Shown here piece after piece: positions 4,735-39,171 of a stretch of DNA of 64,000 bases (position 1 is its first letter; each line of letters opens with the position of its first letter). Under the pieces are notes generated by a model. It was not told the origin of the DNA. It searched no databases and saw only the letters and a list, made by a program, of their open reading frames with translations. This DNA comes from Puniceicoccales bacterium. GTDB lineage: Bacteria > Verrucomicrobiota > Verrucomicrobiia > Opitutales > JAIRKQ01. The stretch covers positions 6,289-70,288 of the forward strand of contig JAISBD010000023.1 in the NCBI GenBank assembly GCA_031266345.1, read 5' to 3'. Both the position numbers and the translations under genes were made by a program.

Positions 4735-5097
4735 TTAAAACTCTAATCCCGCTTCACGGGCAGCGTCGGCAAATGCCTTGATGCAGCCATGGTAGCGATG
4801 ACCTCCGCGATCAAAAATAACGGTTCGAATACCAGCATCAACCGCCTTTTTCCCAAAAATAGCCCCAACTATTGCCGCGCCGCTCATATTTGCAGATAAC
4901 TTTTGGCCAGCGCACTCCTTCGATAGTGTGGACAGAAACAGCAGTGTCCTCTGCGCATCATCATCGATGCATTGGGCATAGATATGCTTTGAGGAAAAGC
5001 ATACGGATAGGCGCAACTTTACCGCTGAACCGTGGATGTGCTTACGCACCCTCGCTTTTCTCCTTGCACGCAAATTTAACTTTTGTTTCAGTTGCAT
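4735..5097 (-). CDS. rplR: 50S ribosomal protein L18
   Basis: [10 protein letters not shown]...HIYAQCIDD...[28 protein letters not shown]. Confidence 0.93.
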
Positions 5098-5126
5098 TTA
5101 GATACCCTGTTCAAATTCATCGAGCG

Positions 5127-5669
5127 CTAGGCAGTCTTCTTGCCCTCCTTCCTGCGCACAAACTCCCCTACCACACGCACCCCTTTGCCTTTGTATGGCT
5201 CAACTGGATAGTAAGACTTTATGTTAGCGGCGACCTGCCCCACCAGCTGCTTATCTACGCCGAAAACGGATAGTTTCGTACCCGTTTGATCAATGTCGAC
5301 CTTGATTCCAGCTGGAATTTCATATAAAATATCATGGGAAAATCCGAGGTCGAGGTCCATAACTTTGCCCTTCATCGTTGCTTTGAACCCGACGCCACTA
5401 ATCTCCAAATTTTTCCTGTAGCCAGTTGTAACCCCAATAACCATGGATTCTATTATGGAGCGCACTGTCCCATGCATCACCAGGGAATGCTCCACGCTAG
5501 TGTCAGCCGGTGAAACGCATACTTCGCCATTTTCCATTTTGATAAAAACGGAATCATCGAAAACTTTTTCATTTTTGCCAAGTGGCCCCTCAACAACAAC
5601 ACTCGCACCGCTTATTAAAACTTTTATCCCCGCGGGAATTTTTATGGGCAATTTTCCTATTCTACTCAT
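5127..5669 (-). CDS. rplF: 50S ribosomal protein L6
   Basis: Start re-set to ATG at 5669 (MSRIGKLPIKIPAGIKV...). The track's longer ORF (to 5786) would overlap rpsH. C-terminus ...YYPVEPYKGKGVRVVGE. Confidence 0.92.
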   Translation of the reverse strand: MSRIGKLPIKIPAGIKVLISGASVVVEGPLGKNEKVFDDSVFIKMENGEVCVSPADTSVEHSLVMHGTVRSIIESMVIGVTTGYRKNLEISGVGFKATMKGKVMDLDLGFSHDILYEIPAGIKVDIDQTGTKLSVFGVDKQLVGQVAANIKSYYPVEPYKGKGVRVVGEFVRRKEGKKTA

Positions 5670-5679
5670 ACGCACCCCA

Positions 5680-6069
5680 TTACCAAACGTAGCACAACAA
5701 TTCACCGCCAACACTTTGCCTGTTAGCCTCAAACCCAGATAATACCCCATGGGACGTGGACATAATGACAAGGCCCATGCCCCCAAGCACGCTTGGAATT
5801 TCTTTAACTCTGCAGTATTGCCTACATCCCGGTGTACTCACTGTGGAAATTTCCGTGATAGCCGGAACGCTATTGACATATTTTAAATCAATTTTGAGCG
5901 AAAACTTATTATTGCCACCATCAATTCTTTCAAAATTCTTTATCATCCCATTATCTTTCAATACGCGTGCGATCCCTTCCAATAGACCAGACCACCGCGT
6001 AGAACAGGATTTCTTTACAGCTAAACTACCATTCCTTATCACGGAAATAAAATCACTAACAATGTCCAT
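5680..6069 (-). CDS. rpsH: 30S ribosomal protein S8
   Basis: ATG at 6069 gives the canonical MDIVSDFISVIRNG... The track start at 6087 is a TTG. Confidence 0.92.
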   Translation of the reverse strand: MDIVSDFISVIRNGSLAVKKSCSTRWSGLLEGIARVLKDNGMIKNFERIDGGNNKFSLKIDLKYVNSVPAITEISTVSTPGCRQYCRVKEIPSVLGGMGLVIMSTSHGVLSGFEANRQSVGGELLCYVW

Positions 6070-6093
6070 TTTTCCAAACTTTTTCAAAAAATT

Positions 6094-6399
6094 TTACCAC
6101 GAAGACTTAGTCACCCCAGGAATTTCTCCAAAAGAAATCATCTCGCGCAGCTGAATTCTCGATAAGCCAAACCAGCGATGGTATCCGCGCGAACGCCCAG
6201 TTACGGCACAGCGATTTCTCACCCGTATGGGGGAAGAATCCTTTGGGAGCTTGGCCATATTTCTCCGCTCTGCCCAATACTCAACTTCTGACAGCGTTGG
6301 ATCCAATAACTTCTTTTTTATTTCCATTCTGCGGGTAACATACTTTTTTACGAGCGCCTTCCGCCTTTCATTTCTAGCTATCGATGATTTTTTAGCCAT
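6094..6399 (-). CDS. rpsN: 30S ribosomal protein S14 (long form, no zinc-ribbon Cys pairs)
   Basis: MAKKSSIARNERRK...RNRCAVTGRSRGYHRWFGLSRIQLREM. AGGAGG lies upstream of the ATG. Confidence 0.93.
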   Translation of the reverse strand: MAKKSSIARNERRKALVKKYVTRRMEIKKKLLDPTLSEVEYWAERRNMAKLPKDSSPIRVRNRCAVTGRSRGYHRWFGLSRIQLREMISFGEIPGVTKSSW

Positions 6400-6410
6400 A
6401 AACCCTCCTA

Positions 6411-6956
6411 CTACTGTTTCCTCCTAAATGGCATGCCAAACTTCGACATTAGAGCATGCCCCTCCCTATCCGTACTTGCATTTGTCACAAAAGATATGTC
6501 CATGCCCACCACCTTCTTATCACGATCTATGCTGATTTCAGGGAAAATCGTATGATCCGCAATGCCTATCGTATAATTACCGCGGCCATCAAACTTATTC
6601 GATATTCCGCGGAAATCTCTTATTCTTGGCAGGGAGATCGCTATAAATTTTAGTAAAAATTCGTACATTTTATTGCCGCGCAGCGTAACTTTTGCCCCAA
6701 CGGGCATGCCTTGGCGCAATTTGAAATTCGATATGCTTTTTTTCGCCTTAGTTATCACGGCTTTTTGTCCGGCAATCGAAGATATATCCTTTTGAACATC
6801 CTGAACGTGCGCCTTATCTGCCGCTGCATCAATGGCAGAATTTATTATTATTTTTTCAAGCTTTGGGACGCAATGGATATTTGGATAGGAAAACTCCCTT
6901 ACCATTCCCTTGGAAATTGTATTCTTATATAATGTTTTTAAAAATGGCTCACTCAT
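6411..6956 (-). CDS. rplE: 50S ribosomal protein L5
   Basis: PKLEKIIINS...TKAKKSISNFKLRQGMPVGAKVTLRG..MYEFL...RDFRG. Confidence 0.94.
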   Translation of the reverse strand: MSEPFLKTLYKNTISKGMVREFSYPNIHCVPKLEKIIINSAIDAAADKAHVQDVQKDISSIAGQKAVITKAKKSISNFKLRQGMPVGAKVTLRGNKMYEFLLKFIAISLPRIRDFRGISNKFDGRGNYTIGIADHTIFPEISIDRDKKVVGMDISFVTNASTDREGHALMSKFGMPFRRKQ

Positions 6957-7302: not shown

Positions 7303-7664
7303 ATTACCTCCGGTGCAAGGGATAGTATTTTTGTGAAATTTTTTTGCCGCAATTCTCTGGCAATAGGGCCAAATATGCGAGTTCCCCTCGGATTTTTTTT
7401 ATCATCTATTATGACGCAAGCATTGGAATCGAATCTTAAATAGCTGCCATCTGAGCGGCGAATTGGATATCTGCAGCGAACTATGACCGCACGCACAACG
7501 GACCCTTTTTTTATTACTGCCTCGGGTATACTTTTCTGAACACTGCACACTATGACATCCCCCACCGTCGCCGTGCGTTTCACCTGCCCCAGGCGGCGAA
7601 TCATCTTCACCTGGCGCGCACCCGTATTATCCGCTACTTGCAATATACTTTCCTGCTGCAACAT
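7299..7664 (-). CDS. rplN: 50S ribosomal protein L14
   Basis: [16 protein letters not shown]...[28 protein letters not shown]. Confidence 0.95.
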
Positions 7665-7687
7665 TTTAACTTCCTCGCCTGCAAATC

Positions 7688-7984
7688 TTACCTTTTAGCT
7701 TCGACTGCGGAATTAATAATTCGACTCAGCCTCCAGCGCTTTAGCTTACTCAGCGGCCTAGTCTCGACAACTTCGACGCTATCCCCAAATTTACACTTAT
7801 TATCCATGTCGTGAACATGAATAACGGTTTTACGCTTGATCTCCTTTTTATATATCGGATGCGGAATTTTGTAGGAATAGGCAACTTTGACCGTCTTGTC
7901 CCCCGTGCGACTAATCACAATCCCCGTCAAAACCTTCCTATTGTTCCTATTTACTGCACTATTTTCAGCCACTTTACACCTCAT
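7688..7984 (-). CDS. rpsQ: 30S ribosomal protein S17
   Basis: [19 protein letters not shown]...[35 protein letters not shown] overlap with rpmC. Confidence 0.9.
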
Positions 7985-8172
7985 TTTGCCAATATTATAC
8001 GCTTAGTAGTCATGATTGCCGCAATGTCACGCTTTATTTCAGAAAATTTATTGGGTTTTGATACTTGGCCAACATTTTTCTTCAAATTGAGCATTTCTAG
8101 TTCACTGCGCAACTCATTTTCTTTTTGATTAAGTTCGCCCATGGATAACTCTGCAAATTTATTTTTTTTCAT
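7981..8172 (-). CDS. rpmC: 50S ribosomal protein L29
   Basis: ELSMGELNQKENELRSELEMLNLKK. ATG at 8172 is preferred over the track's GTG at 8178. Confidence 0.88.
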   Translation of the reverse strand: MKKNKFAELSMGELNQKENELRSELEMLNLKKNVGQVSKPNKFSEIKRDIAAIMTTKRIILAK

Positions 8173-8180
8173 CGCCACAC

Positions 8181-8609
8181 CTAAAAAGTATTTTGCTCAT
8201 CCCTGCTTATAAATCTACAATGAAACGGAATTTTTCCATCCGCCAAGCGCATCGCTTCACGGGCAATCGTCACTGATACGCCCGCCACTTCAAAGATAAT
8301 ATTACCTGGTTTTATCTGCGCAACCCAATATTCAACGGGTCCTTTGCCCTTGCCCATGCGCGTCTCAGCGGGTTTTTTAGTTATTGGCCTACCCGGAAAT
8401 ATGCGCATCCACATTTTTCCCTTTCTCTTTAAATGCCTGTTTATGGCCACGCGCGCCGCTTCTATTTGGGAAGCTGTCATATTGCCTCGTTCCAAAGCCT
8501 GTATGGCAAAATCTCCAAAAACTATGGAAGCTCCGCCTTTAGCATGGCCCCGATTGCGCCCTTTCTGCACCTTCCTATACTTTGTTTTCGCTGGTAATAA
8601 GTTGCTCAT
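8181..8609 (-). CDS. rplP: 50S ribosomal protein L16
   Basis: MSNLLPAKTKYRKVQKGRNRG...QIEAARVAINRHLKRKGKMWMRIFP. Confidence 0.95.
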   Translation of the reverse strand: MSNLLPAKTKYRKVQKGRNRGHAKGGASIVFGDFAIQALERGNMTASQIEAARVAINRHLKRKGKMWMRIFPGRPITKKPAETRMGKGKGPVEYWVAQIKPGNIIFEVAGVSVTIAREAMRLADGKIPFHCRFISRDEQNTF

Positions 8610-8631
8610 TTATAAAGCCTTATAAAATAAT

Positions 8632-9261
8632 TCATTTTTCAGTTTGTTTATTACATATCCAGCATTTCACCCCAATTTTTCCATACACCGTGTTTGCTTC
8701 GGAAAAACCATAGCCTATATCCTCGCGCAAGGTGTGCAATGGTACGTAGCCGGCTTTTTGCTCTTCACTCCTCGCAATTTCAGCTCCCCCCAAACGGCCA
8801 GAACATTTAATTCTTATGCCCTCAGCGCCGAAGCTCATGGATGTTTGTACGGCCTTCTTGAGTGCGCGCCTAAAAGCAACCCTGCGTTCCAACTGAGACG
8901 CAACGCTGTCCGAAACCAATTGGGCAACCAAATCCGGCTTCTTAATCTCCTGCACATCAACGAGAACATCGCCCCCCGTAATTCTGTTTAAAGACTCGCT
9001 TATGCGCTCGAGTTCCTTACCCTTGACTCCAATTACCACCCCCGGCCGAGGGGTAAGCAACTTAACGCGAACTTTTTCGCCGGAACGCTCAATGTCAACT
9101 TCGGCAATGGATGCGTGCTTCAACTTGACCTTTAAAAATTCGCGAATTTTGAAATCCTCGCTAACAAATTTTGAAAAATTTTTCTTGTCGGCAAACCAGC
9201 GTGATTTCCAATCGCGCCTGATTGGTAACCTAAATACTATAGGATTTACTTTTTGCCCCAT
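8632..9261 (-). CDS. rpsC: 30S ribosomal protein S3
   Basis: MGQKVNPIVFRL...KH domain...GAEGIRIKCSGRLGGAEIARSE. Confidence 0.95.
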   Translation of the reverse strand: MGQKVNPIVFRLPIRRDWKSRWFADKKNFSKFVSEDFKIREFLKVKLKHASIAEVDIERSGEKVRVKLLTPRPGVVIGVKGKELERISESLNRITGGDVLVDVQEIKKPDLVAQLVSDSVASQLERRVAFRRALKKAVQTSMSFGAEGIRIKCSGRLGGAEIARSEEQKAGYVPLHTLREDIGYGFSEANTVYGKIGVKCWICNKQTEK

Positions 9262-9262
9262 A

Positions 9263-9610
9263 TTACTCTTTCTCCCCGCTGATTGACTTTAATATTACAC
9301 GAATGTGACTTGTTCGCTTGCGAATGGGATGGGCGGATCCTCTGGCTGCCGGCGTGAATCGCTTAAATACGGGCCCTTCCTCAATTAAAACATTTTCGAC
9401 TAACAAATCATTGACTAAAAGATTGCCATTGTTTTCCGCGTTGGCAACGGCACTGGATAGGGTTTTAAAAATTAATCTCGCCGATTTACGCGTTGAAAAT
9501 TTTAGGAACGATAGTGCATCCGCTGCCCGTCGCCCACGTAGCACACAGGAAATGTCGCGCAACTTTTTCGCCGACATGCGTGCATATTTAAACTTTGCTT
9601 CTATTTTCAT
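9263..9610 (-). CDS. rplV: 50S ribosomal protein L22
   Basis: ARMSAKKLRD...AVANAENN...EGPVFKRFTPAARGSAHPIRKRTSHI. Confidence 0.93.
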   Translation of the reverse strand: MKIEAKFKYARMSAKKLRDISCVLRGRRAADALSFLKFSTRKSARLIFKTLSSAVANAENNGNLLVNDLLVENVLIEEGPVFKRFTPAARGSAHPIRKRTSHIRVILKSISGEKE

Positions 9611-9618
9611 TTACAACC

Positions 9619-9891
9619 TCAGGCCTTCTGCGTATGCGGATTGTGAGCTTTAAATGCCCTTGTGTGGGCAAACTCACCAAGCTTGTGCCCAACCATGTTC
9701 TCCGTCACGTAAACGTCAATGAATTTTTTACCATTGTGCACTAAAAAAGTCAAGCCAACAAAATCAGGCGTCACGGTCGACCGGCGTGACCATGTCTTGA
9801 TCGGTTTAGTAGACTTATTCTCTTGCGCGCTAAGAACCTTGTCCATCAAACAAACATCTACAAAATATCCCTTTTTTCTAGATCTCGTCAT
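9619..9891 (-). CDS. rpsS: 30S ribosomal protein S19
   Basis: KKGYFVD...[43 protein letters not shown]. Confidence 0.95.
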
Positions 9892-9893
9892 AG

Positions 9894-10757
9894 CTAACCC
9901 CTAGTATTTTTTCTCATTTTTTTACCGTTCCGACGTATCAAGATCATGGCATTGGAACTCTTTGCCCTCTTGCGAGTCGGCTTGCCCTTTGCCAACTGCC
10001 CCCACGGCGACACGGGATGCCCACCACCAGACGTGCGCCCTTCACCCCCACCCATCGGGTGATCAACGGGGTTCATTGCTACGCCACGCACACGCGGACG
10101 GTGACCTAGCCAGCGATTACGGCCAGCTTTCCCAAGTGAACGCTTCCCATGTTCCTCGTTGCCGACAACCCCAATTGTTGCCCTGCAATCAGCATGGAAA
10201 TATCTAATTTCACCGCTCGGCATCTTCAAAGTTACTAGGTCATTTTCCATTGCAACCAGCTGCGCACTCATGCCGGCAGCACGGGCAAACTTGGCACCAC
10301 TGCCCGGCTCACTCTCTATGGAATGCACAAGGACGCCCTGTGGAATAAACCTTAGTTGCATCGATGTTCCATCGGAAAAATCATCGGTTTTGACATTTCG
10401 GCTATGCACCGTGTCACCTTCTTTCATGCTTTTTGTTGCGAGGATATAGCGCTTTTCGCCATCTTTGTACGCCAGCAAAGCAATGTTTGCCGACCTCGTT
10501 GGGTCATACTCTATCGTCTTAACGGTGGCGGGAATATCAAATTTATTCCGCCCAAAGTCCACGATTCGCCCCAATTTTTTATGACCGCCGCCACGCCTGC
10601 GCAACGTGATCCTGCCATAGCAATTCCGCCCGCTGCTGCGTATTTTGGAATGCGTCAAGCTGCGCTGGGGACTATTTTTTGAAGAAGACAGCTGCCCGCT
10701 GATTTTTGTCAAAAATCTTTGCCCAGGAGTCAATGGTCGTGATTGTATTATCGCCAT
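9894..10757 (-). CDS. rplB: 50S ribosomal protein L2
   Basis: RRRGGGHKK..., [34 protein letters not shown]. Confidence 0.96.
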
Positions 10758-10759
10758 GT

Positions 10760-11047
10760 TTATATTACCTCAATTTTATCGCCATCTTTCAGCGATACGA
10801 TCGCTTTCTTAAATGTCTGTGTTCTTCCCGGTCGGGCCTTTTTCACTCGGGCACGCCTGTGCTTGCTGCTAGTATTCAACACGTTAACCGATTCAACTTT
10901 CACTTTGAAAATTTCCTCAACAGCCGATGCTATACTATGCTTCGTGGCGCACTGACACACTTTAAAAGTATATTGATTCAAGTCAGCTGACAGACCATTC
11001 GACTTCTCGGTCAACATTATTTCCTGCAAAATTCCAAAGTGACTCAT
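10760..11047 (-). CDS. rplW: 50S ribosomal protein L23
   Basis: LTEKS...YTFKV...ATKHSIASAVEEIFKVKVESVN. Position is between rplD and rplB. Confidence 0.88.
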   Translation of the reverse strand: MSHFGILQEIMLTEKSNGLSADLNQYTFKVCQCATKHSIASAVEEIFKVKVESVNVLNTSSKHRRARVKKARPGRTQTFKKAIVSLKDGDKIEVI

Positions 11048-11688
11048 TTCATTCCCTCCGCTAATAATCCGGAACGCTTTAATAGAGCATCAATCGCCCC
11101 CTCGGATACTACTACGTTTTTAAAACGGATGATATCGTAGGCGTTAACTGAATTCCCGTCAATCATGTGAACATTACTCATGTTCCTCGATGCCAAAATA
11201 AATTTTTCTGAAAAAATATCGGAAATCAACAGTATGCCCTTGCCGCCAGCAACAGAATTTATCAGCCTCGCCGCTTCCTTAGTTTTTGGTTCGGCGACGT
11301 CAAATTCGGAAATAAGTGAAAATTCTCCCGCCCTCACCCGGTCACATATGGCTCTCGCCAAAGCCATATTTTTAATTTTTTTATTTAATTTTTGAGAAAA
11401 ATCCCGCGGTTTTGGCCCAAAAACAACTCCGCCGCTTACCCAAATTGGGCTTCGTTTCGATCCGTGGCGAGCCATGCCGGTGCCCTTTTGCCTATACGGC
11501 TTCTTCCCCGTTCCGCTAACGTCTCCACGGTCCTTGGTGCAAGCATTTCCCTGCCTTAGATTCGCTGTAAAAGCAACCACATACTGCCGCAAAGCTACGG
11601 CACCTTTGCCCTCCTCCAACATCGTGACTCCGTCCATAATTTTTTCCGGCAGTGCACTCCAATCTTTATTGTAAAATTTCAGCTTCAT
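11044..11688 (-). CDS. rplD: 50S ribosomal protein L4
   Basis: ATG at 11688 (MKLKFYN...) avoids overlap with rplC. SGTGKKPYRQKGTGMARHGSKRSPIWVSGGVVFGP. Confidence 0.92.
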   Translation of the reverse strand: MKLKFYNKDWSALPEKIMDGVTMLEEGKGAVALRQYVVAFTANLRQGNACTKDRGDVSGTGKKPYRQKGTGMARHGSKRSPIWVSGGVVFGPKPRDFSQKLNKKIKNMALARAICDRVRAGEFSLISEFDVAEPKTKEAARLINSVAGGKGILLISDIFSEKFILASRNMSNVHMIDGNSVNAYDIIRFKNVVVSEGAIDALLKRSGLLAEGMK

Positions 11689-11701
11689 CGAATTCTTCAC
11701 C

Positions 11702-12346
11702 TCATAAAGATTTAATGGCCCGCCTGACCAAGACAAATCCATTTTTAGCCCCAGGAACGCTCCCCCTCACCAATAGCAAACCCCTCTCATGGTCAATTTT
11801 TACAACGGATAAATTCTGAATTGTGCGCCTATCACAGCCAAAATGTCCCGGCATCTTGCGGCCCTTAAACACGTGGCCAACCCACTGGCGCTGCCCATAT
11901 GAACCACCTCGTCTATGAAACATGGACCCGTGCGATGCCGGACCGCCGCCAAAATTGTACCTCTTCATGACGCCGGCAAACCCACGTCCCTTTGTGGTCC
12001 CTATCACATCTATCAAATCAGACACGGCAAACTCTCCGAGTAAATCAATGTCGCCAATTGCATATCCCTCGACGGAATCAACCCTCATTTCATGCAACCT
12101 TAAGGGCGAAAAATCAGGATTTTGCTTATTTTGGCCAAGTTCAGCTTTGGTCGAGTGCTTGGCATTTTTTTTGCCAAATCCAAATTGAATGGCATTGTAC
12201 CCGTCTCTTTCCACCGTTTTTACCCTGGATACCATGCTCTTTTCCACTTGGATCACAGTCACGGGAACTAGCTCCGATGAATCACCATAAATCTGAGTCA
12301 TCCCCAACTTTTTTCCAATTAAAAATGTATTTCTCTTTTTTTCCAT
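11702..12346 (-). CDS. rplC: 50S ribosomal protein L3
   Basis: ATG at 12346 (MEKKRNTFLIGKKLGMTQIYG...). TKGRGFAGVMKRYNFGGGPASHGS. Confidence 0.93.
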   Translation of the reverse strand: MEKKRNTFLIGKKLGMTQIYGDSSELVPVTVIQVEKSMVSRVKTVERDGYNAIQFGFGKKNAKHSTKAELGQNKQNPDFSPLRLHEMRVDSVEGYAIGDIDLLGEFAVSDLIDVIGTTKGRGFAGVMKRYNFGGGPASHGSMFHRRGGSYGQRQWVGHVFKGRKMPGHFGCDRRTIQNLSVVKIDHERGLLLVRGSVPGAKNGFVLVRRAIKSL

Positions 12347-20106: not shown

Positions 20107-23100
20107 TTAAATATTGTCCATCTCCAATGTTGGATCGTTTTCCAGCCTGATGTCGAGGCATAGTCCCTGCAACTCTTTCATTAAAACATTAAATGACTGC
20201 GGAATGCCGGCGTCGAGCGAAGTGTCGCCCTTGACTATGGATTCATAGATTTTCGTTCGCCCCTGGGAATCGTCGGACTTCACCGTCAGTAACTCCTGCA
20301 AGGTGTAAGCTGCCCCATAAGCCTCCATGGCCCAAACCTCCATCTCTCCGAATCGCTGGCCACCGTACTGTGCGCGGCCACCGAGCGGCTGCTGTGTGAT
20401 CAAACTATAGGGCCCAACCGCACGGGCATGCACCTTATCGGCGACGAGGTGATTAAGCTTCATCATATATATATACCCAACGGTGACACGCTGGTCAAAT
20501 CTTTTGCCCGTACAGCCGTCAAACAGCTCCGTTTTTCCATCGAGGGGGAGGTCTGCCTTCTCCATCAACTCCTGAATCTTTTTTTCGGAAGTGCCGTCAA
20601 ACACGTGGGTAGCGACCTTAATGCCGAGTTTTCTACACGCCGCACCAAGGTATGTTTCCAAAATTTGCCCCACATTCATGCGGCTCGGCACGCCCAGTGG
20701 GTTCAAAATGATATCAACGGGGCGCCCATTTGGCAAAAATGGCATGTCTTCCCGCTTAACTATGCGGGATACAACGCCCTTGTTGCCGTGCCTCCCCGCC
20801 ATTTTGTCGCCCACCTGAATTTTGCGCTTATTTGCGATGAATACTTTGACATTCTTTATGATGCCGGATTCGTCCAAGTCGCCCGACTCGATGGCCGCAA
20901 TTTTGTGCAGCCGCTCCTCTTCCAAGTCATCGAACTTCGATTGAAATTGGTCAATGATTTCAAAAATTTTGGTTTTAACGGGCGAAGATGGCATGTCGAT
21001 GCTACGCCCACTTGCAGCCAATCGGCGTAGCAATGTTTTTGTAATTTTGCGATTTGCCGCCAGGATTGTCTCATTGGTTTCCGTATCGACGATATCAAGC
21101 GGAATTTTTTCCCCCAGCAATATGCCGGAAAATGCTTCGGTTAAGTCATCGCGTATGTGGTCGGCCTGGATGCGAAATTCTTCATTCACCTTTTTTATGC
21201 GGCGGCGACACTCGGATTCCGTAATATCTTCCTTCTCATGGTCCGTTCTGCTGGATATTTTTATTTCCATGACAGTTCCGTAGCAGCCGGCGGGAGCAAC
21301 CAGCGATGTGTCCTTCACATCGGCTGCCTTTTCACCGAAGATCGCCCGCAATAATTTTTCTTCCGGGGCAAGATCGGTTTCAGTTTTCGGGGTGACTTTT
21401 CCAACGAGAATGTCCCCGGGCTTGACCTCTGCACCGACTTTAATTATCCCATCGCGGTTTAAATTTTTCAAGACCTCGTCGCCAACATTGGGAATGTCGC
21501 GCGTAATCTCCTCTATGCCCAATTTCGTATCCCGCGCCGTGACCTCATATTCGTCGATGTGAATTGAAGTGAAAATATCGTCGGTGATCATCCTTTCGCT
21601 CAGAATTACGGCATCTTCAAAATTATATCCGTTCCAGGGCATGAAAGCTACGAGAACATTCTTGCCAAGCGCGAGCTCGCCGCGGTCCGTCGAAGCACCG
21701 TCGGCGAGGACATCCCCCGCTTGCACCGCTTGCCCCTTTGATACAATGGGATGCTGATTGAAGCAGGTGGCTGCGTTGGAGCGCATGTATTTGACCAACT
21801 TATAGACCTGAATGCCGGGATCTCTGTTCTTCGACTCATTAAAATTGGCGGCCAGGGTGCCATCCGCGGAGACTATTATCCTGTTGCTATCCACGGAAGC
21901 AACGATGCCATCTTGTTGTGCAATAACGACATGCCCCGAGTCATGCGCAATTTTTTCTTCAATGCCAGTGCCCACCAATGGGGTTTCGGCTAGCAGCAGG
22001 GGAACACCTTGGCGCTGCATGTTTGCCCCCATCAATGCCCGGCTAGTGTCATCGTGCTCGAGGAAGGGAATCAATCCCGCCGCGATGGATATGACCTGCT
22101 TTGGTGACACGTCCATGTAATTTACCTCGGCGGGCGCCACATCCAACAATTGGTCGGATTTGCGAACGGCCACCTTCCCTAGCAAATTTCCCTCGCCGTC
22201 CATTTCGGAATTGGCCTGTGCTATGATTTTTCCCTCCTCATCGTCGGCGTTTAGAAATACAACCTCGTCGGTCACACGCCCGTCTCTTACAACGCGATAG
22301 GGAGTTTCGATGAAACCAAAATTATTTATGCGCGCATAGGTGCTTAGGGAATTGATAAGTCCGATGTTTGGCCCCTCCGGGGTCTCGATGGGACAAATCC
22401 TTCCATAGTGGGAGGGATGCACGTCACGCACTTCTAGGCCCGTGTGCTCCCGATTCAACCCATTGGGCCCCAATGCGGATAGGCGTCGCTTATGGGTGAT
22501 TTCCGACAGGGGATTGATTTGGTCCATGAATTGGGACAGCTGGCTGCAGGCGAAGAAATCGCGAATCACCGACATCAGCAGCTTCGGATTTATCAATTTT
22601 TGGGGGGTTAGCATGTCAACGCTCTGGTCGAACAGCGACATGCGCTCGCGAATGACGCGCTCCATGCGAGCAATTCCCACGCGACACTGATTGACGAGTA
22701 ACTCGCCAACGCCGCGCACACGCCTGCTTCCAAGATTATCAATGTCGTCTATGAAACCCGTTCCATTGCGCAATGAACACAAGTACTTCGTCGCTGCAAC
22801 GATATCATCGGCCCCGATCACGCGGTCATCTAAGTCCTTATCCAAACCAAGTTTTCTGTTCAATTTGTAGCGCCCAACTTGACTTAAATCATATCTCTTG
22901 TTGTCGGTGAACATCCTGGCCCAGAACGACTTAGCGTTTTGCAAGTTCACCGGTTCGCCGGAGCGCAACAGCTTATAGATCTCAAAGAGGGCCTCCTCCT
23001 CGTTGTGGGAATTATCCTTGCGCAAACTCCTGACTATCAATCCACCATCAAAGGACGTATCAGCATAGGAAACCCTATTTATGCCCGCCTCTTGAAAGCT

Positions 23101-23886
23101 TTTTAGGAGAGTTTTTCCGATGTTATCATAGGCACGGGCGATGACGATTCCCTGGTGAACATCGATGATGTCGTCCGTCAAAACGTAATTTATCAGCGAA
23201 TCCCTCTTCAATAGCTCATCGACATCGGATTCCTCAATCCTGTAAAACAGAGACAAAATATCGTGGTCAGAGCTGTATCCAAATGCACGCAACAACGTGG
23301 TAACAAGAAACTTGCGCCGCCTATGCCTGCGGTCGAGATACACATAGATGAGGTCATTTTGGTCCGTTTGGACCTCAATCCATGTCCCGCGATCGGGCAT
23401 AACTCTGAAGGCGTACAAATTTTTGCCGCTAGTGTGTTGCGTAACTTCAAAACATATCCCGGGCGACCGGTGTAGCTGGCTAACAACGACGCGCTCCGCC
23501 CCGCTAATTATGAACGATCCGCGCTTGCTCATCAGAGGAATTTCTCCGATGTAAATTTCTTCCTCGCGGGACTCATCGGCACTTGTCAGCTTCAGTGTTA
23601 TGTATAGGGGAGCCCCGAACGTTGTCCCTTCCTTCAGGCAAAAATATTCGGAATATTTGGCAGGTGCGACCCTGTAGGATAGGTAATCCAGCGAGACACT
23701 GCCATCGTAGCTAGTTATCGGAAACGCATCCCGAAAAACAGACTCCAAACCAACATTGCGCCGCTCTTTCACGTCCACATCCTGCTGCAAAAACTCCTTA
23801 AAAGAATTTACTTGGCTTTCAATGAGGTAAGGCGGCGTTATGACCTCTTTCAGCTTCCCAAAATTAACGCGATGGATATCCGACAT
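20107..23886 (-). CDS. rpoB: DNA-directed RNA polymerase subunit beta
   Basis: 1259 aa. ...[27 protein letters not shown]..., [15 protein letters not shown], ...MNVGQILE... Confidence 0.97.
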   Translation of the reverse strand: [1259 protein letters not shown]

Positions 23887-28611: not shown

Positions 28612-29421
28612 TCAGCAAACTGACAGCTCCACTGCGAATGACTCCCCTTCGTTGGGTTGGATGCAACGGTAGTGCGACCAATCCTTGAAATCGGCGTCAC
28701 AGTTGGGCAAGTCGGGCATGCAAAGAAATTCAACGCAGCCCCGCTTTTCACCCCGCCTCAGGGCAAAATAGGCCCGGGGATATTTTCCGCAGAATATTAG
28801 GGACAGGGCTTCTTCCTCGTTCTTCGTTACTAGGGAAGCTTTGTAATCCTGCATGGCGCTGATTGCTAAGACGTTGCCCTCCGGCAGAACGACTGGAATT
28901 TTATCCCCGCATTTCGCCGATTCTATGAGGGATAAATCTTCGTTTAGGAGAAATTTTTTCTTCGCTTTGCTGCGGATTGAGTATTGGTCAAGGGTCAAGT
29001 CGCTGTGCCAGGGGATGCGAATCGGCATGCGGATTAGGGGGCACCAGTGCAGCGGAAATGTGCCAACGTTATCCAGACTGATTTCGAAACGCATGGATAA
29101 ATCTGATAATCTATAGCTAATCTTCGGTATGCATGGGTGGCAGAGCTCGGAATCTTTGGGCCCAAACGCTAGGCAATCCCCCTCGGCGGGGTAGCGCACA
29201 AATTCAATGTCGGCGAAGGCAAGTTCTCCCAAACCGGCCACGGGCATGGCCCGCGCATTGAGCTGCCACTGGGAACCGATGCCGCTGAAAAGGACGTCGC
29301 GCCAAGAAGAATCCGCTAAGCCTATTTGCCACCCCATCAAGCGCGCAGAGCCATCCCCAGCGATAAAATAGCGGGACGGCCCAACATCGATTTGCAATAT
29401 ATCAGCTTCCTGATTCTCCAT
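28612..29421 (-). CDS. hypothetical protein (weak resemblance to aldose-1-epimerase/mutarotase-fold proteins)
   Basis: 269-aa ORF packed 14 nt downstream of the GalE-like gene. The functional guess rests only on neighbourhood and loose motif resemblance (..CHPCIP.., beta-rich). Confidence 0.45.
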   Translation of the reverse strand: MENQEADILQIDVGPSRYFIAGDGSARLMGWQIGLADSSWRDVLFSGIGSQWQLNARAMPVAGLGELAFADIEFVRYPAEGDCLAFGPKDSELCHPCIPKISYRLSDLSMRFEISLDNVGTFPLHWCPLIRMPIRIPWHSDLTLDQYSIRSKAKKKFLLNEDLSLIESAKCGDKIPVVLPEGNVLAISAMQDYKASLVTKNEEEALSLIFCGKYPRAYFALRRGEKRGCVEFLCMPDLPNCDADFKDWSHYRCIQPNEGESFAVELSVC

Positions 29422-30459: not shown

Positions 30460-31953
30460 TCATGGAGCTGACAATGCCTGCTCGCCTTTGGCAGGCTGCA
30501 CCGCGGCAGGTCCAACATTGTTTTCAACACTTTGGTCAACTTTCGCTTCGAAGCCATTCATGGCATTGAGCTGCTCCTTCGTGGCAATCGCCGTTGCAAC
30601 CAGGCGGCTATCCTCAAATTCAGCCACATAGCCCTCGTGTAGCAGCCAATTGAGGTCCCTTACAAACATCGACAAATTTTCATCCTTTTCGGACAGGGTA
30701 TCATCCGGTATGGCGGCGGCGGGATAAAGCTTTCGATAAATATCCATCGGTTTGCAGTTTTGGTTGGCCTCTATGCAATCAATCACCCGCTGAATGTTAT
30801 CATCGAAGCGGTCTTCAGTGGACCTGAACTTGCGTTTCACCGCACAGGTGTAAGTTATTTTCGATGCGGACCCGATCTTATAAATCGTAAATTTTTCGCG
30901 GCGCAGCTTGCTGCGGAGGTTATTGGCCAACCCAAGTGGGAACTTTTTTTCACGGAGAAACAGGATAAAAATAGATTTGCCCAGTATCCCGTGGGGCATT
31001 GCATTGAATGTCGTGCCCGTTATTCGGAAAGAATCCGCGACTTTTATGACTTGTTCCTTGAAATTTTCAAGGAAAAATTTCCGCACATCGGCCAAGCGCG
31101 TAAATCGCCTATCGATGCCCTCCACTTTGGGGATGTACACTTTTACCTTTGAAGCGGCGGCCTTCCACTCATCAATCGCCGCTTGGTCGGTTATGGACTC
31201 CACGCTTTCTTTGAACCGTTGAAAAGACATCTTCGGGCAATGCTCATCGTGGTGCTCCATCAAAATTTCCTGGTAGCGGTGATAATTTGGCGGACAAAGA
31301 ATTTGATTGGTTAACCCGCATTTGTGGAGGCAAATAAAAGTGCCATTGGGAGGTTCCACATTTTCCTCCACCACTTCGAAATATTTGTCACAATGGTTCG
31401 CCAAAACATGTCTGACTGCACTCTGCTCATCGGCAAAAATGAAGCCGTCATCCGCTGCTAGGTACAGGTTTTTGTCATCCTGAATCGGCGTTTTTTTTAT
31501 CACAGCGACGAAGCGTTCCGGTTTTTCCAGAAACAAGCGGGCAACATTGAAAAGTTCGTAAGTTTTGCAGGTCAGACGGAATGCTGCTATGGCGGTGCTA
31601 AAATATGAATCTTCGGGGTAAAAATTTGCCTCAACGATGGGGATGAATTCCTGATTTCTATCATTGAATTGCCGATTTTTCCGGAAATCTTGCCCATCGC
31701 GGCGGCGATTTCTATTGAATTGAAAATCCCCACCCATGCCTGGACCACGCTCGCTTCGATAGCCATTTTTCCTTTTTTCGCTCCCATCGGAGTGTTTCTT
31801 CCACTTCTCCTTTTGACCATCATGCCTATCCCTGAGGTCGTGGGAAAAATCCTCGCGTTCTCCGCCATCGTGTTTGCGCAACCTGCTCCCCCAGTCCGGC
31901 TCGAAGGAAAATTCCTTTAATCCGAGTAAATCCAAATCATCATCATCGCCCAT
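30460..31953 (-). CDS. hypothetical protein, 497 aa, Arg/Asp/Lys-rich low-complexity N-terminus
   Basis: Long uninterrupted ORF in operon-like array prmA/lipoprotein/this/GalE-like. No family recognised. Confidence 0.6.
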   Translation of the reverse strand: MGDDDDLDLLGLKEFSFEPDWGSRLRKHDGGEREDFSHDLRDRHDGQKEKWKKHSDGSEKRKNGYRSERGPGMGGDFQFNRNRRRDGQDFRKNRQFNDRNQEFIPIVEANFYPEDSYFSTAIAAFRLTCKTYELFNVARLFLEKPERFVAVIKKTPIQDDKNLYLAADDGFIFADEQSAVRHVLANHCDKYFEVVEENVEPPNGTFICLHKCGLTNQILCPPNYHRYQEILMEHHDEHCPKMSFQRFKESVESITDQAAIDEWKAAASKVKVYIPKVEGIDRRFTRLADVRKFFLENFKEQVIKVADSFRITGTTFNAMPHGILGKSIFILFLREKKFPLGLANNLRSKLRREKFTIYKIGSASKITYTCAVKRKFRSTEDRFDDNIQRVIDCIEANQNCKPMDIYRKLYPAAAIPDDTLSEKDENLSMFVRDLNWLLHEGYVAEFEDSRLVATAIATKEQLNAMNGFEAKVDQSVENNVGPAAVQPAKGEQALSAP

Positions 31954-36056: not shown

Positions 36057-36170
36057 CGCCTTACTTTTATATTTTTTTGCACACTTCGCAATTTAAAAAA
36101 GCAATCCGCTGCAAATTTTGCTTTACGAGCGTTGCCATATCAATTTTATGACAACCATTCTTATAAAAAT

Positions 36171-36821
36171 ATGACGGCTAATAAGTTGAATTGGTGTATC
36201 GTTCGCCTTGGCGAAGATTTTAATTGGTGGGTCAGTGAAGTCAGCGATGACATACATTGGGAAGCGGAAGGGCTGGGGATCCTCGACCCTAACCAGGTTG
36301 AATACATGGTAGATCTACTCGTCCAGATGCAGGCTTATGGGCTTAGAAACGATGTCGTTGAGGATGCCTTTTTTAAATTTTCCATTGAAAAAGAGCTGCC
36401 AAAAAGCATGATTAGGCTTGTTGCCAGCAGCGAAGAATTGATGTTCAGTAAGGAAAAAATTTTTGCGATGCCGAATGCCATAGATGATAATGAGGGCCCA
36501 TACGTGGATTTTATAGATCACATAATAGCAATTCGAGTCAAGATGCTGAATGCCAATTTAAATTTTAAGCAACCCTTTGAAATTGAGGAACTAGAGGAAG
36601 CCATACGCGATGAGCAGCAAGCGGATTATGTCAGCGGGAAGGGGCACCACGTCTTCGAGGAAATAGTTTCGATTTTGGACTATGTCCCACTGGGATATAG
36701 CTTGGATGACGACGCTACGGAACAAGACTTGGAAGCGGAGGTCGATTTGCCAGACTTTGAGGATGAGCTGGAAAGCGAAGATTCCCGAGTTAAGGAGTGG
36801 GACTATGGGGATTATAACTAA
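36171..36821 (+). CDS. hypothetical acidic protein
   Basis: ATG at 36171 (the track start 36132 is TTG). 216 aa with a D/E-rich C-terminal tail. Immediately upstream of candidate effector A on the same strand. Confidence 0.55.
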   Translation: MTANKLNWCIVRLGEDFNWWVSEVSDDIHWEAEGLGILDPNQVEYMVDLLVQMQAYGLRNDVVEDAFFKFSIEKELPKSMIRLVASSEELMFSKEKIFAMPNAIDDNEGPYVDFIDHIIAIRVKMLNANLNFKQPFEIEELEEAIRDEQQADYVSGKGHHVFEEIVSILDYVPLGYSLDDDATEQDLEAEVDLPDFEDELESEDSRVKEWDYGDYN

Positions 36822-36916: not shown

Positions 36917-38560
36917 ATGGATGGTGTTTTGGATGCAGAGGAAAGTTCCGGGGATGGGGAAAGTCTTGCAAAAACGAAAATGTGCCAAGGGGAGGCCGCA
37001 ATTTCAAAGAAAGACTTCCGCCAGTTATTTCCGGAAAATTTAATGGAGCTGGAGAATCCTGCCAACATCAAAAAAGTGCCGCTGGAGTGGTTAAAGTATC
37101 TTACTCCAAAGCAGTTGCAATATTTGAGCGCAAAGCAAAGGCGTGCTTTGTTAGCGGAGCAAATCGACGCTGAATATGTTTACAATAGCGTGGATAGTAA
37201 GCTCACGGAGTTGATGGGGCGCTCAGCGGAGAGCATTGCTTCCGAAGCCAAAACTTTGTGTAGGGAAAAAATGGCATCCCTTGGGGCAATAAACAGGGAG
37301 GAAAATAGGAAAGAAATTTTGCTTTTTTTAGCGGCCATTGGGAAACATGCTTTGAACAACGTAGCATCAAAAAGTGAAATTAAAAGACTGAGACAGGCGG
37401 TATTTCATCTGTGTACGGCACCGCTAGTTGCCGGATCTTCCGTAAATGAATTGGCGGATGAGTTTGGCGGCGACTATCCAAGCTCAAATTTTTTAAAGCA
37501 GAATAATCCGAGCTGCGTAGAAATAGCGCTGGAAGCCGAAGCCACGCTAATTATGCTGGATGCGAAAAGAGATGGCCACATCGGGCTAGCGGTTACCCCA
37601 TTGGCCCGGGGAGACTACAATACGGTTTATGCGTCCGCCGACGGAGCCTTGGCCCTGAAGTTGTGTGATAAATTTAACCCAAGGTTTTCCGAAAGAATAA
37701 AATTTCAAACGGCGGTGGGAAAGGTAGTCGGTGCGTACAGATGCAATTTGGCTACGGATGCGGTGCAGCGACTCATGGAGCAGGCTGGAGCTCCACACGT
37801 AGTGGCGAATGTTGCCGCCGGTGTAATGAAAAATGGCAGAGCATGCGTCGCCACGGAGATGATTGGCGAAGAGCTCGAAGTCTTCGGCATACTGCACAGC
37901 GAAAATTCAAAATTGGTAAAAGAATTCATAGAAAGGGACACGTGGATACAATTGGAGGACATTTTAACCGGCCAGGTCGATAGGCATGATAGCAACGTTA
38001 ATATTTCCTCCGCGGGGTGGCCGGTGGGGATCGACCACGACCTGTGTTTCCCAACCATGGCTAGGGTCCAACTCTTTAAAGATTCTCCCGCCTGGGGATT
38101 TAGGAATAATACCTGTCCCGCCGAAATTAAACCCAATGTGGCAAATACAATACCCGATACACTCGTGGCAGTCAGCGGGGAAGGCGTGGAGGTAAAGAGC
38201 AAGGGGCAAGGCTCAATTGGGGTGGATGGTGGCGTGAGGAAAAACTTTTGCATGCCGCCGGTGATAGATGTTGGGATGCGCGATGCGATCCTTGGGATAA
38301 ATTTGGACGAGTTGGGGAGCATTTATGGGGATTGCGGCTTGACGCGGGCTGAAATCGAGCCAGCTCTGAAGAGAGCGGAGCTGCTCAAGGCAAGAATTAG
38401 AAACATGGCGACAAATAGGGTAGTAAAACCGGAGCAGTGGAGCGCAGCCCTCATAGGAGCGAAGGGATGCACCTCGGTAAATTTTTACGCACACAGACAT
38501 TCGGAATGCGTGCTCATGAAAAATTCTCTGGGCTACGAATGGTCCGGAGTGGCCAGCTAG
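36917..38560 (+). CDS. candidate T3S effector A with protein-kinase-like catalytic motif
   Basis: 547 aa. GGTGAGG SD-like element 6 nt before the ATG. Motif LTGQVDRHDSNVNISSAGWPVGIDHDLCFP. Paralogous core to the ORF at 44920. A T3S chaperone gene is convergent downstream. Confidence 0.6.
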   Translation: MDGVLDAEESSGDGESLAKTKMCQGEAAISKKDFRQLFPENLMELENPANIKKVPLEWLKYLTPKQLQYLSAKQRRALLAEQIDAEYVYNSVDSKLTELMGRSAESIASEAKTLCREKMASLGAINREENRKEILLFLAAIGKHALNNVASKSEIKRLRQAVFHLCTAPLVAGSSVNELADEFGGDYPSSNFLKQNNPSCVEIALEAEATLIMLDAKRDGHIGLAVTPLARGDYNTVYASADGALALKLCDKFNPRFSERIKFQTAVGKVVGAYRCNLATDAVQRLMEQAGAPHVVANVAAGVMKNGRACVATEMIGEELEVFGILHSENSKLVKEFIERDTWIQLEDILTGQVDRHDSNVNISSAGWPVGIDHDLCFPTMARVQLFKDSPAWGFRNNTCPAEIKPNVANTIPDTLVAVSGEGVEVKSKGQGSIGVDGGVRKNFCMPPVIDVGMRDAILGINLDELGSIYGDCGLTRAEIEPALKRAELLKARIRNMATNRVVKPEQWSAALIGAKGCTSVNFYAHRHSECVLMKNSLGYEWSGVAS

Positions 38561-38679
38561 CAATCCATTTGCATAGGATTTCCAACTCCGCTCCCAGGGA
38601 AAAAATATGCTTCACAGGCAGCCCTCTTTCCCCCTCTCGGGAAATTTTTTACTTACAAGCTTGGGAAATATATGCTTTG

Positions 38680-39171
38680 CTAAGCCCCCATCATGAATTG
38701 GGGCCCTAAATTACCTGCCACTGGTGCCTGTTCCTGGCCTTCGGAAGATCCCTCGCCTTCCGGTATTTCGCCTTGCATGAAAGCCATAATGCGCTTTGTC
38801 CACCTCTCAACTTCATCCAAAAACAGCTTAAAGAATTCCTCAAAACCCTCATCTGCTAAAAATCGCAGTGGATATTGATACCCCAGAGCAGCCTTCCCGC
38901 TTTCGGAGTTATAGGAAAGGGTCATACCCTTTGTTTCTTCCTGATTATCGTTCATCCTTAGCAGATATCTCATAACTACGGCCCGATTGATCTGCGGAAT
39001 TTCACCGATCTCGGCGATGAATATCATGCCATCGCGCTTATTATCGTATTTCAGATGGACAAGCATACCATTGTCTACGTCGAGGCAACAGTAACCCGAT
39101 GGGTCGATTTTCAACCCCATCAAATTTATCTTGTTCGCAAAACCATTTAAAATCGAAGAAAATTTGTCCAT
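38680..39171 (-). CDS. class I type III secretion chaperone (CesT/SycE-like)
   Basis: 163 aa, acidic. Pattern FSSILNGFANKINLMGLKIDPSGYCCLDVDNGMLVHLKYDN..DGMIFIAEIGEIP...VMRYLLRMN...LSYNSESGKAALGYQYPL..L...GFEEFFKLFLDEVERW. Confidence 0.7.
   Translation of the reverse strand: MDKFSSILNGFANKINLMGLKIDPSGYCCLDVDNGMLVHLKYDNKRDGMIFIAEIGEIPQINRAVVMRYLLRMNDNQEETKGMTLSYNSESGKAALGYQYPLRFLADEGFEEFFKLFLDEVERWTKRIMAFMQGEIPEGEGSSEGQEQAPVAGNLGPQFMMGA

Follow-up and report, generated by a model that had tools for sequence, protein, structure and literature searches.

A kinase gene and its motifs

The stretch of DNA analyzed here (the window) comprises 64,000 nt of contig JAISBD010000023.1 from a Puniceicoccales bacterium, and our subject is a forward-strand gene near its middle whose 547-aa product is a candidate effector of a type III secretion system (T3SS). 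An initial annotation, made from the letters alone, had described three open reading frames (ORFs) at this locus: the 547-aa ORF at 36917-38560 (+), a 163-aa ORF at 38680-39171 (-) and an acidic ORF upstream. All three are present as described. The 547-aa ORF has a Shine-Dalgarno-like GGTGAGG 6 nt 5′ of its ATG, and the segment that had drawn attention to it, LTGQVDRHDSNVNISSAGWPVGIDHDLCFP, corresponds to residues 350-379 (nt 37964-38053). The gene and its elements are as follows.

36917..38560, + strand: 547-aa PI3/PI4-kinase-like kinase with a predicted protein-kinase-like (PKL) fold, candidate T3SS effector (from the ORF, homologues, AlphaFold2 model and Foldseek)
36917..37306, + strand: residues 1-130, N-terminal region exclusive to the window copy; proposed secretion signal and chaperone-binding region
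37307..37576, + strand: residues 131-220, family-conserved helical extension before the N-lobe (blastp matches to 16 family members)
37610..37660, + strand: Gly-rich loop (G232) to beta3 lysine (K248), ATP-binding elements of the N-lobe
37979..37996, + strand: catalytic loop D355-R-H-D-S-N360, after helix H331-351 (conservation, profile alignment)
38033..38041, + strand: D373-H-D, DFG-equivalent metal-binding Asp, after strand E369-371
38243..38269, + strand: family signature N-F-C-M-P-P-V-I-D at residues 443-451, just before the C-lobe helices

Conservation of the catalytic core

We counted conservation in an alignment of 34 homologous sequences, with identities down to about 20%. Five columns are invariant in 34/34 members (Q345, G352, D355, N360 and D373), while R356 (33/34), K248 and G232 (both 32/34) are nearly so. 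H357 and D375 are each retained in 30/34 and H374 in 24/34, with Asn in 7. The signature columns are similarly constrained (P447, 33/34; P448 and D451, 32/34; I450, 31/34). The ATP-binding Lys, the catalytic Asp and the metal-binding Asn and Asp of a PKL kinase are all conserved, and the D-x-H-x-x-N loop and I-D-H-D motif proposed from the single sequence as a catalytic core are not a chance resemblance: its D355, N360 and D373 never vary and its His residues are largely kept. The arrangement is that of the Pfam family PI3_PI4_kinase (PF00454), with a DRHxxN loop and an Asp 13 residues after the Asn (D373 after N360), and with DHD in place of DFG.

The profile searches place the active site in the same superfamily. 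PI3_PI4_kinase is matched by 24 of the 34 relatives (best E 2.3e-8), and in a few of the 34 there is an additional match to Pkinase, PK_Tyr_Ser-Thr, APH, ABC1 or HipA_2. The family member P0078 passes the PI3_PI4_kinase threshold with 84.9 bits. The window kinase alone has no sequence match in the PDB. When the family profile is compared to the PDB, its catalytic loop and DFG segment match mTOR, SMG1, TOR2, ATR, Tel1 and PI4KA, the best being the catalytic segments of mTOR, SMG1 and TOR2 (E 5e-4 to 1e-3); for its N-lobe, the matching stretch in MARK, IKKb, CDK7 and PKA is the Gly-loop/VAIK region. On these alignments and the model described below, the 547-aa protein is predicted to be catalytically competent, with an active site of the type shared by phosphatidylinositol 3-kinases (PI3Ks), phosphatidylinositol 4-kinases (PI4Ks) and PI3K-related protein kinases (PIKKs).

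The further resemblance to type II PI4Ks that had been drawn from the IDNG-like and MPPVI segments does not survive comparison. PI4K2A and PI4K2B chains are absent from the PDB matches at E<=10, both with whole-family profiles and with residues 340-500, and from the top 50 PDB matches found by Foldseek. We therefore rejected a specific type II PI4K resemblance on the absence of these enzymes from both the sequence and the fold matches.

A predicted protein-kinase-like fold

We modeled the protein with AlphaFold2 (AF2) from the 34-sequence multiple sequence alignment, obtaining a mean predicted local distance difference test score (pLDDT) of 82.2 and a predicted template modeling score (pTM) of 0.81; single-sequence AlphaFold reached a pLDDT of only 36. 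The elements of the model follow the canonical PKL order (beta1-3/alphaC/beta4-5/alphaE/catalytic loop/beta7-8). After residues 1-31, which are predicted to be disordered (pLDDT <50), helices extend up to about residue 219 (H128-147, H152-167 and H198-219, pLDDT ~90) and are followed by strands 226-231, 236-240 and 245-249, placing G232 in the beta1-beta2 turn and K248 in the strand E245-249. A helix at the alphaC position (273-289), strands 299-304 and 309-314 and a helix at 331-351 then lead to the catalytic loop (355-360), to strands 361-363 and 369-371, and to D373. The remainder consists of a lower-confidence variable insert at about 380-445, the NFCMPPVID segment at 443-451 and a C-terminal helical bundle.

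Compared to the PDB with Foldseek, the model's top matches are protein kinases alone (GRK5/1/6, Rio2, FGFR1, Csk, CDC7, RET and PAK3), with probabilities of 0.97-1.0 and E-values of ~2e-4 to 3e-3. The best fold match in BFVD is a phage protein named 'Phosphatidylinositol 3-/4-kinase catalytic domain' (E 3.7e-5), and further BFVD matches are PI3K/PI4K-domain and Ser/Thr-kinase proteins. A structure search could have assigned a non-kinase fold, and it did not. On the modeled fold and the aligned motifs, the protein, to which no solved structure is close, is predicted to be a PKL kinase whose active site is of the PI3/4K type. As to a lipid or a protein substrate, the active-site loops appear PI3K/PIKK-like, and the N-lobe and the fold matches appear closer to eukaryotic protein kinases (ePKs); PF00454 itself includes protein kinases.

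A small, patchily distributed family

When 1.84 billion cluster representatives were scanned exhaustively with HMMER, 80 relatives emerged at E<=1e-3, 21 of them at E<=1e-30. A word-indexed search of 5.8 billion proteins returned 2 relatives, and 2-4 even with a 25-sequence profile. The initial annotation had called the protein an orphan that matched no described effector family. The second statement is borne out, as none fits; the first needs a qualification, as an exhaustive search brings out about 80 relatives, nearly all of them unnamed proteins. Scanning genomes with a 3-sequence alignment yielded 3 loci with relatives; none came from one scan of viral contigs and two of metagenomes, these collections evidently lacking the relevant samples.

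The 20 named relatives are almost all called 'hypothetical protein [Puniceicoccales bacterium]', with several paralogues inside one Puniceicoccales metagenome-assembled genome (MAG; LBJ94_01490 and LBJ94_02285), and none comes from Legionella, Francisella or Rickettsia. Outside the Puniceicoccales, a protein of a Holosporaceae MAG is 43% identical over the matched stretches, and the plant pathogen Paracidovorax anthurii, which has a T3SS, encodes a relative named 'Phosphatidylinositol 3-/4-kinase' (P0081). The latter aligns with the family profile over the whole domain (hhalign probability 99.7%, E 3.5e-27), including an LPPVVD version of the signature, and the signature is also found in P0078. 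Several relatives are fusions: P0031 (1370 aa) and P0051 (789 aa) join the kinase to SidE-type phosphodiesterase (PDE)/HD domains, and P0078 (2154 aa) carries its threshold-passing PF00454 domain together with a Fam20C-like kinase domain. The N-termini of the family are hypervariable, Pro-rich or repetitive. Patchily distributed paralogues, domain fusions and hypervariable N-termini are typical of effector families.

A kinase that stays in the bacterial cytoplasm and has a housekeeping or regulatory task unrelated to secretion, such as phosphorylating a small molecule or an envelope precursor, would suit the position of the gene. It is flanked by housekeeping genes (T2SS, or type II secretion system, pseudopilins, skp-lpxD and ATP synthase), the base composition of its region is unremarkable (GC 0.45-0.46 versus 0.43-0.54 elsewhere), and many PKL families act on small molecules. 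Such a role is difficult to reconcile with only 80 relatives among 1.84 billion representatives, with multiple divergent paralogues in single MAGs, with the hypervariable N-termini and with the lack of conserved metabolic neighbors at the family loci examined, and we consider it very unlikely. A role in anti-phage defense was ruled out, as PADLOC found no defense-system match.

Individual loci show further features. One 781-aa homologue (L001, 3234-5579) contains tandem repeats of ~14 residues (…SNKQTPAPKSDxNNE/K…) at residues ~190-290; tandem repeats in the N-terminal half are a typical effector feature. On a contig of one Puniceicoccales MAG, two kinase paralogues lie in tandem (L008, 6101-7741 and 8001-10043). 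At L002, the kinase homologue is broken into two overlapping ORFs in different frames (5015-6124 and 6010-6756), which reflects either a pseudogene or an assembly error.

A conserved partner gene at related loci

Across 13 independent family loci, the usual companion of the kinase gene is a gene for a conserved protein of ~190-240 aa, which lies 11-60 bp 3′ of the kinase gene on the same strand at 7/13. These seven loci are spread across Puniceicoccales, Opitutia and Holosporaceae, and one of them is L002, where the partner gene is intact despite the broken kinase.

L002, 6787-7368: partner gene
L003, 2778-3338: partner gene
L006, 2216-2938: partner gene
L007, 1181-1759: partner gene
L009 (Holosporaceae), 5115-5729: partner gene
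L010, 1965-2558: partner gene
L011, 6846-7424: partner gene

The partner proteins share the motif AFGQxGYGFNSxxFDIxYxxxKFGYxFxIPFGGAF and pairwise E-values as low as 8e-49, and two members left out of the profile score 5e-42 and 2e-23 against it. Neither Pfam nor a PDB profile search nor PADLOC assigns the family, the one hint being a SUKH-1 (SMI1/KNR4) match below threshold (E 0.005), and it is unrelated to the two proteins encoded beside the window kinase (hhalign probability 0.2). No partner gene is encoded in the 64 kb of the window, and an intact kinase without it is present both here and at five other loci, among them the tandem pair of L008. For the ~190-aa partner, roles as an inhibitor or immunity protein, as an escort or as a co-effector are conceivable.

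These observations bring in a toxin-immunity or toxin-antitoxin-like pair aimed at bacterial targets, in the producer's own cell or in competitors, in which the partner neutralizes the kinase and the window copy is an orphan toxin. The co-directional pairing recurs in three lineages and its conservation holds for members withheld from the profile; at L009, an Ntox8/Imm30/DUF2750 cassette of the polymorphic-toxin type (7756-9137) lies ~2-4 kb from the kinase-partner pair. HipA toxins, moreover, are also PI3/4K-like kinases. The faint SUKH-1 signal is of interest in that SUKH proteins are common immunity proteins (PMC3482391), although it is sub-threshold and the PDB profile search of the partner is empty. 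On the other side, the family members contain no recognized toxin-trafficking domain (RHS, PAAR, LXG or FilH) and no HipA_C, and PADLOC matches none of them; the partner is missing from almost half of the loci despite an intact kinase; and the SidE-type PDE and Fam20-like fusions, together with the endosymbiont-type genomes, point to eukaryotic targets. We regard a toxin role as unlikely.

Two of these loci have additional neighbors. L009 also encodes several coiled-coil orphan proteins near the pair. At L011, whose contig shares sequencing run SRR14710922 with the window, two proteins without a Pfam family, one of 965 aa with coiled coils and one of 484 aa with repeats, are encoded 3′ of the pair (7575-12305), a region that may be an effector island.

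A chaperone gene beside the window kinase

In place of the partner, the window copy has a different neighbor.

38680..39171, - strand: 163-aa acidic CesT-family class I type III secretion (T3S) chaperone, pI 4.70 (Pfam, PDB matches)
38627..38644, + strand: terminator-like GC hairpin with a T-run between the kinase and chaperone genes (consensus match only)
36171..36821, + strand: 216-aa acidic protein, pI 4.06 (length counted from the ATG; a TTG start at 36132 would give 229 aa)

The 163-aa protein matches Pfam CesT (PF05932) with E 9.7e-14 and 52.0 bits (cutoff 22) over profile positions 2-118 of 119, its best PDB matches over the full length are SpcS, CesT (three entries) and ShcA, and a match to SicP is weak. 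Its length, its acidic pI and its position next to a candidate substrate gene are those of a class I chaperone, and its earlier assignment to this class is thereby upheld. The description of a dedicated chaperone fails as a trait of the family, with a CesT gene at 0/12 other loci and a different downstream partner at 7/13; the CesT pairing is specific to the window copy of the kinase. The upstream 216-aa acidic protein had been offered as a third member of the module. It has no Pfam, NCBIfam, PADLOC or PDB match, does not recur at the other kinase-family loci and is unrelated to the ~190-aa partner family, and so its membership finds no backing.

The window kinase also has an N-terminus of its own: in blastp (E<0.01), residues 1-130 match none of the family's 80 members. 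We infer that this region serves secretion and chaperone binding.

An injectisome fragment and a probable intracellular lifestyle

The same organism encodes an injectisome, and part of the apparatus lies within the window, together with a marker of life inside host cells.

54976..55632, - strand: SctR, injectisome export-apparatus protein (NF009438, TIGR01102)
55616..56905, - strand: SctQ-like cytoplasmic ring protein (Pfam FliMN_C 2.8e-14)
58690..60237, - strand: TLC-family ATP/ADP translocase, marker of an intracellular energy-parasitic lifestyle (Pfam TLC E 2.6e-172)

SctR passes NF009438 (284.5 bits, cutoff 179) and TIGR01102 (262.9, cutoff 208.6) and fails the cutoff for the flagellar FliP (175.7 < 217.45). 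The SctQ-like protein matches TIGR02551 with E 2.9e-18, its 66.9 bits falling below the cutoff of 100.8. Of the injectisome genes that had been placed at 55-57.7 kb, SctR is therefore firm and SctQ weaker, while the 276-aa ORF at 56912-57742 (-) has no family match in Pfam or NCBIfam. The T3SS genes in the window (54368-57742) form only a fragment, in which the 276-aa ORF is followed by the SctQ-like gene and then by sctR. Pfam does not identify the 78-aa ORF that comes after sctR as SctS, and there is no SctS, SctT or SctU beyond it; next come a 199-aa protein, which has a faint TsaB match, and MlaD. The apparatus must be encoded at several separate loci.

The source contig, 73 kb in length, occurs in NCBI, JGI and Logan. 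RpoB (20107-23886) is 92%, 78% and 76-77% identical to MAGs named 'Puniceicoccales bacterium' and ~67% identical to Opitutales and Coraliomargarita, identifying the source as a verrucomicrobium of the class Opitutia. The combination of TLC translocase, T3SS and T2SS pseudopilins could suggest a chlamydial origin, which these RpoB identities rule out. An injectisome and a TLC translocase occur together in this verrucomicrobial window, forming an 'intracellular toolkit' like that of chlamydiae, and on general grounds the two indicate an intracellular lifestyle. Protists are the hosts of the verrucomicrobia of the 'Nucleococcus cluster', which live as endosymbionts in the nucleus or the cytoplasm (PMC8204192).

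Four other window ORFs have no Pfam match: 44920-46554 (+, 544 aa), 46580-47332 (+, 250 aa), 28612-29421 (-, 269 aa) and 30460-31953 (-, 497 aa). NCBIfam likewise has no match for 44920-46554, 46580-47332 and 56912-57742. Counting the last, these five family-less ORFs could be lineage-specific effectors or apparatus proteins.

Proposed delivery and role of the kinase

The reading that we prefer, at a probability of roughly 0.55, is that the 547-aa protein is an active PI3/4-kinase-like T3SS effector that is delivered with the help of the CesT chaperone, uses its N-terminal 130 residues for secretion and chaperone binding, and acts on a host substrate. A CesT dimer would bind the unique N-terminal residues in the bacterial cytoplasm and hand the kinase over to the injectisome for translocation into the eukaryotic host cell. 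Once inside, the kinase would phosphorylate a host phosphoinositide or protein and so remodel the symbiont's niche. This context is supported by the CesT gene 119 bp away, by SctR and the TLC translocase, by the unique and partly disordered N-terminus, and by the patchy, fusion-prone family. Injection into the host cell is probable; a phosphoinositide as the substrate is a guess.

Several observations weigh against this reading. The kinase and CesT genes are convergent, 119 bp apart counted from the kinase stop, and are not co-transcribed, and a CesT gene is found at none of the 12 other kinase-family loci. Residues 1-30 of the kinase are acidic, with 7 D/E versus 4 Ser and 1 Thr. The partner at 7/13 loci may be of the inhibitor or immunity type, hinting that the kinase's activity can harm its producer. 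As for the enzyme itself, there is no invariant alphaC Glu (the polar residues conserved on that helix are N277 and Q284), the TM-scores of the Foldseek PDB matches are low (0.2-0.4), and the window kinase's own match to PF00454 (14.3 bits, E 0.039) misses the gathering threshold of 27.1 and spans only residues 348-381, with profile positions 141-175 aligned to the catalytic loop.

The kinase could be secreted or host-directed while the adjoining CesT protein serves another substrate, the kinase leaving by another export route or by chaperone-free type III secretion. Each of the two convergent genes has its own promoter-like site (for CesT at 39243-39215, a consensus match), the terminator-like hairpin stands between them, no CesT gene accompanies the other family members, the Holosporaceae one included, and relatives are found in lineages for which the secretion systems are not established. 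Nevertheless, class I T3S chaperone genes usually adjoin the gene of their substrate, the other neighbor of the CesT gene is the housekeeping skp/lpxD unit, and the 130-aa N-terminus is unique to the copy that lies beside CesT. A chaperone unconnected to the kinase therefore seems rather unlikely to us, although it is the strongest of the three alternatives to CesT-assisted delivery.

Comparison with known systems

Compared to the PI3Ks, type III PI4Ks and PIKKs (mTOR, SMG1, ATR) of PF00454, the family shares the (G)DRHxxN loop, the Asp at N+13 and the ATP-binding beta3 Lys. It differs in having D-H-D or D-N-D for DFG, followed by the long variable insert, and in its family-specific NYCMPPVID motif and C-terminal helical bundle, and it lacks the PIK, FAT and C2 accessory domains. 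Its N-lobe is also more ePK-like (LGxGxxNxV ... K), and its fold matches favor ePKs and Rio2 over PI3Ks.

Phosphoinositide-kinase effectors include OpiA of Francisella, delivered by a type VI secretion system (T6SS), LegA5/AnkK, LepB and MavQ of Legionella, delivered by a type IV secretion system (T4SS), and Risk1 of Rickettsia (T4SS). By description, these resemble the window kinase as atypical PKL or PI3/4K-like kinases from intracellular bacteria, whereas the window kinase would be delivered by a T3SS with a CesT chaperone and comes from a verrucomicrobium. These effectors are the nearest functional analogues, but no sequence link to them emerged, on the indirect evidence of the named relatives and the PDB: LepB and MavQ are absent from the PDB sequence matches and from the top 50 PDB fold matches. 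Risk1 was recognized through pfam00454's catalytic and activation loops, and its catalytic-loop His is needed for activity (PMC7298712, PMC9758233).

The chaperone-effector pairs CesT-Tir, SicP-SptP, SpcS-ExoS and SycE-YopE likewise combine a small acidic CesT protein with a larger neighbor that has a disordered N-terminus, in an organism with an injectisome. Unlike in those class I pairs, the window genes are convergent and the pairing is not kept in the kinase's relatives. With HipA toxins and SUKH pairs, the family has in common the D-x-H-x-x-N loop and a small conserved protein beside the kinase in most relatives. In contrast to them, it has no HipA_C, its partner lies downstream rather than being an upstream helix-turn-helix (HTH) antitoxin, and the window copy has no partner. 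The 34 members gave a single HipA_2 match (E 0.049), and their neighbors are not HTH proteins.

Implications

As defined by their sequences, a small PKL/PI3-4K-like kinase family, previously undescribed and rich in paralogues in Puniceicoccales MAGs, and a partner protein family are new. The kinase has a distinctive active-site variant (DRHxxN...DHD...NYCMPPVID), and a family of ~80 representatives is small enough for comprehensive characterization. The partner protein of the relatives offers a handle on how a producer controls such kinases.

A bolder and more doubtful proposal is that a new family of effector kinases begins with the window protein, a signature host-manipulation tool of Puniceicoccales protist endosymbionts like those of the 'Nucleococcus cluster', exchanged with co-resident Holosporaceae. 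A dedicated ~190-aa inhibitor or escort of novel structure would restrain the kinase within the producing cell, and in the window lineage CesT and a fresh N-terminal module would have taken its place, so that the kinase is diverted to the injectisome. The window kinase would then be the first phosphoinositide-type kinase delivered by a T3SS and a case of partner swapping, with an immunity-like protein in its relatives versus a secretion chaperone here. We offer this as speculation.

For effectors of the phosphoinositide-kinase type, the phylum and the delivery context would be new, with the enzymology and the secretion predicted. Kinases that act on host phosphoinositides or signaling, such as OpiA, LegA5, LepB, MavQ and Risk1, come from a few proteobacterial pathogens and travel by T4SS or T6SS, and to our knowledge almost no effectors have been described for protist symbioses. 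If the preferred reading is true, the theme would reach Verrucomicrobia and take in both type III secretion and the symbioses of protists.

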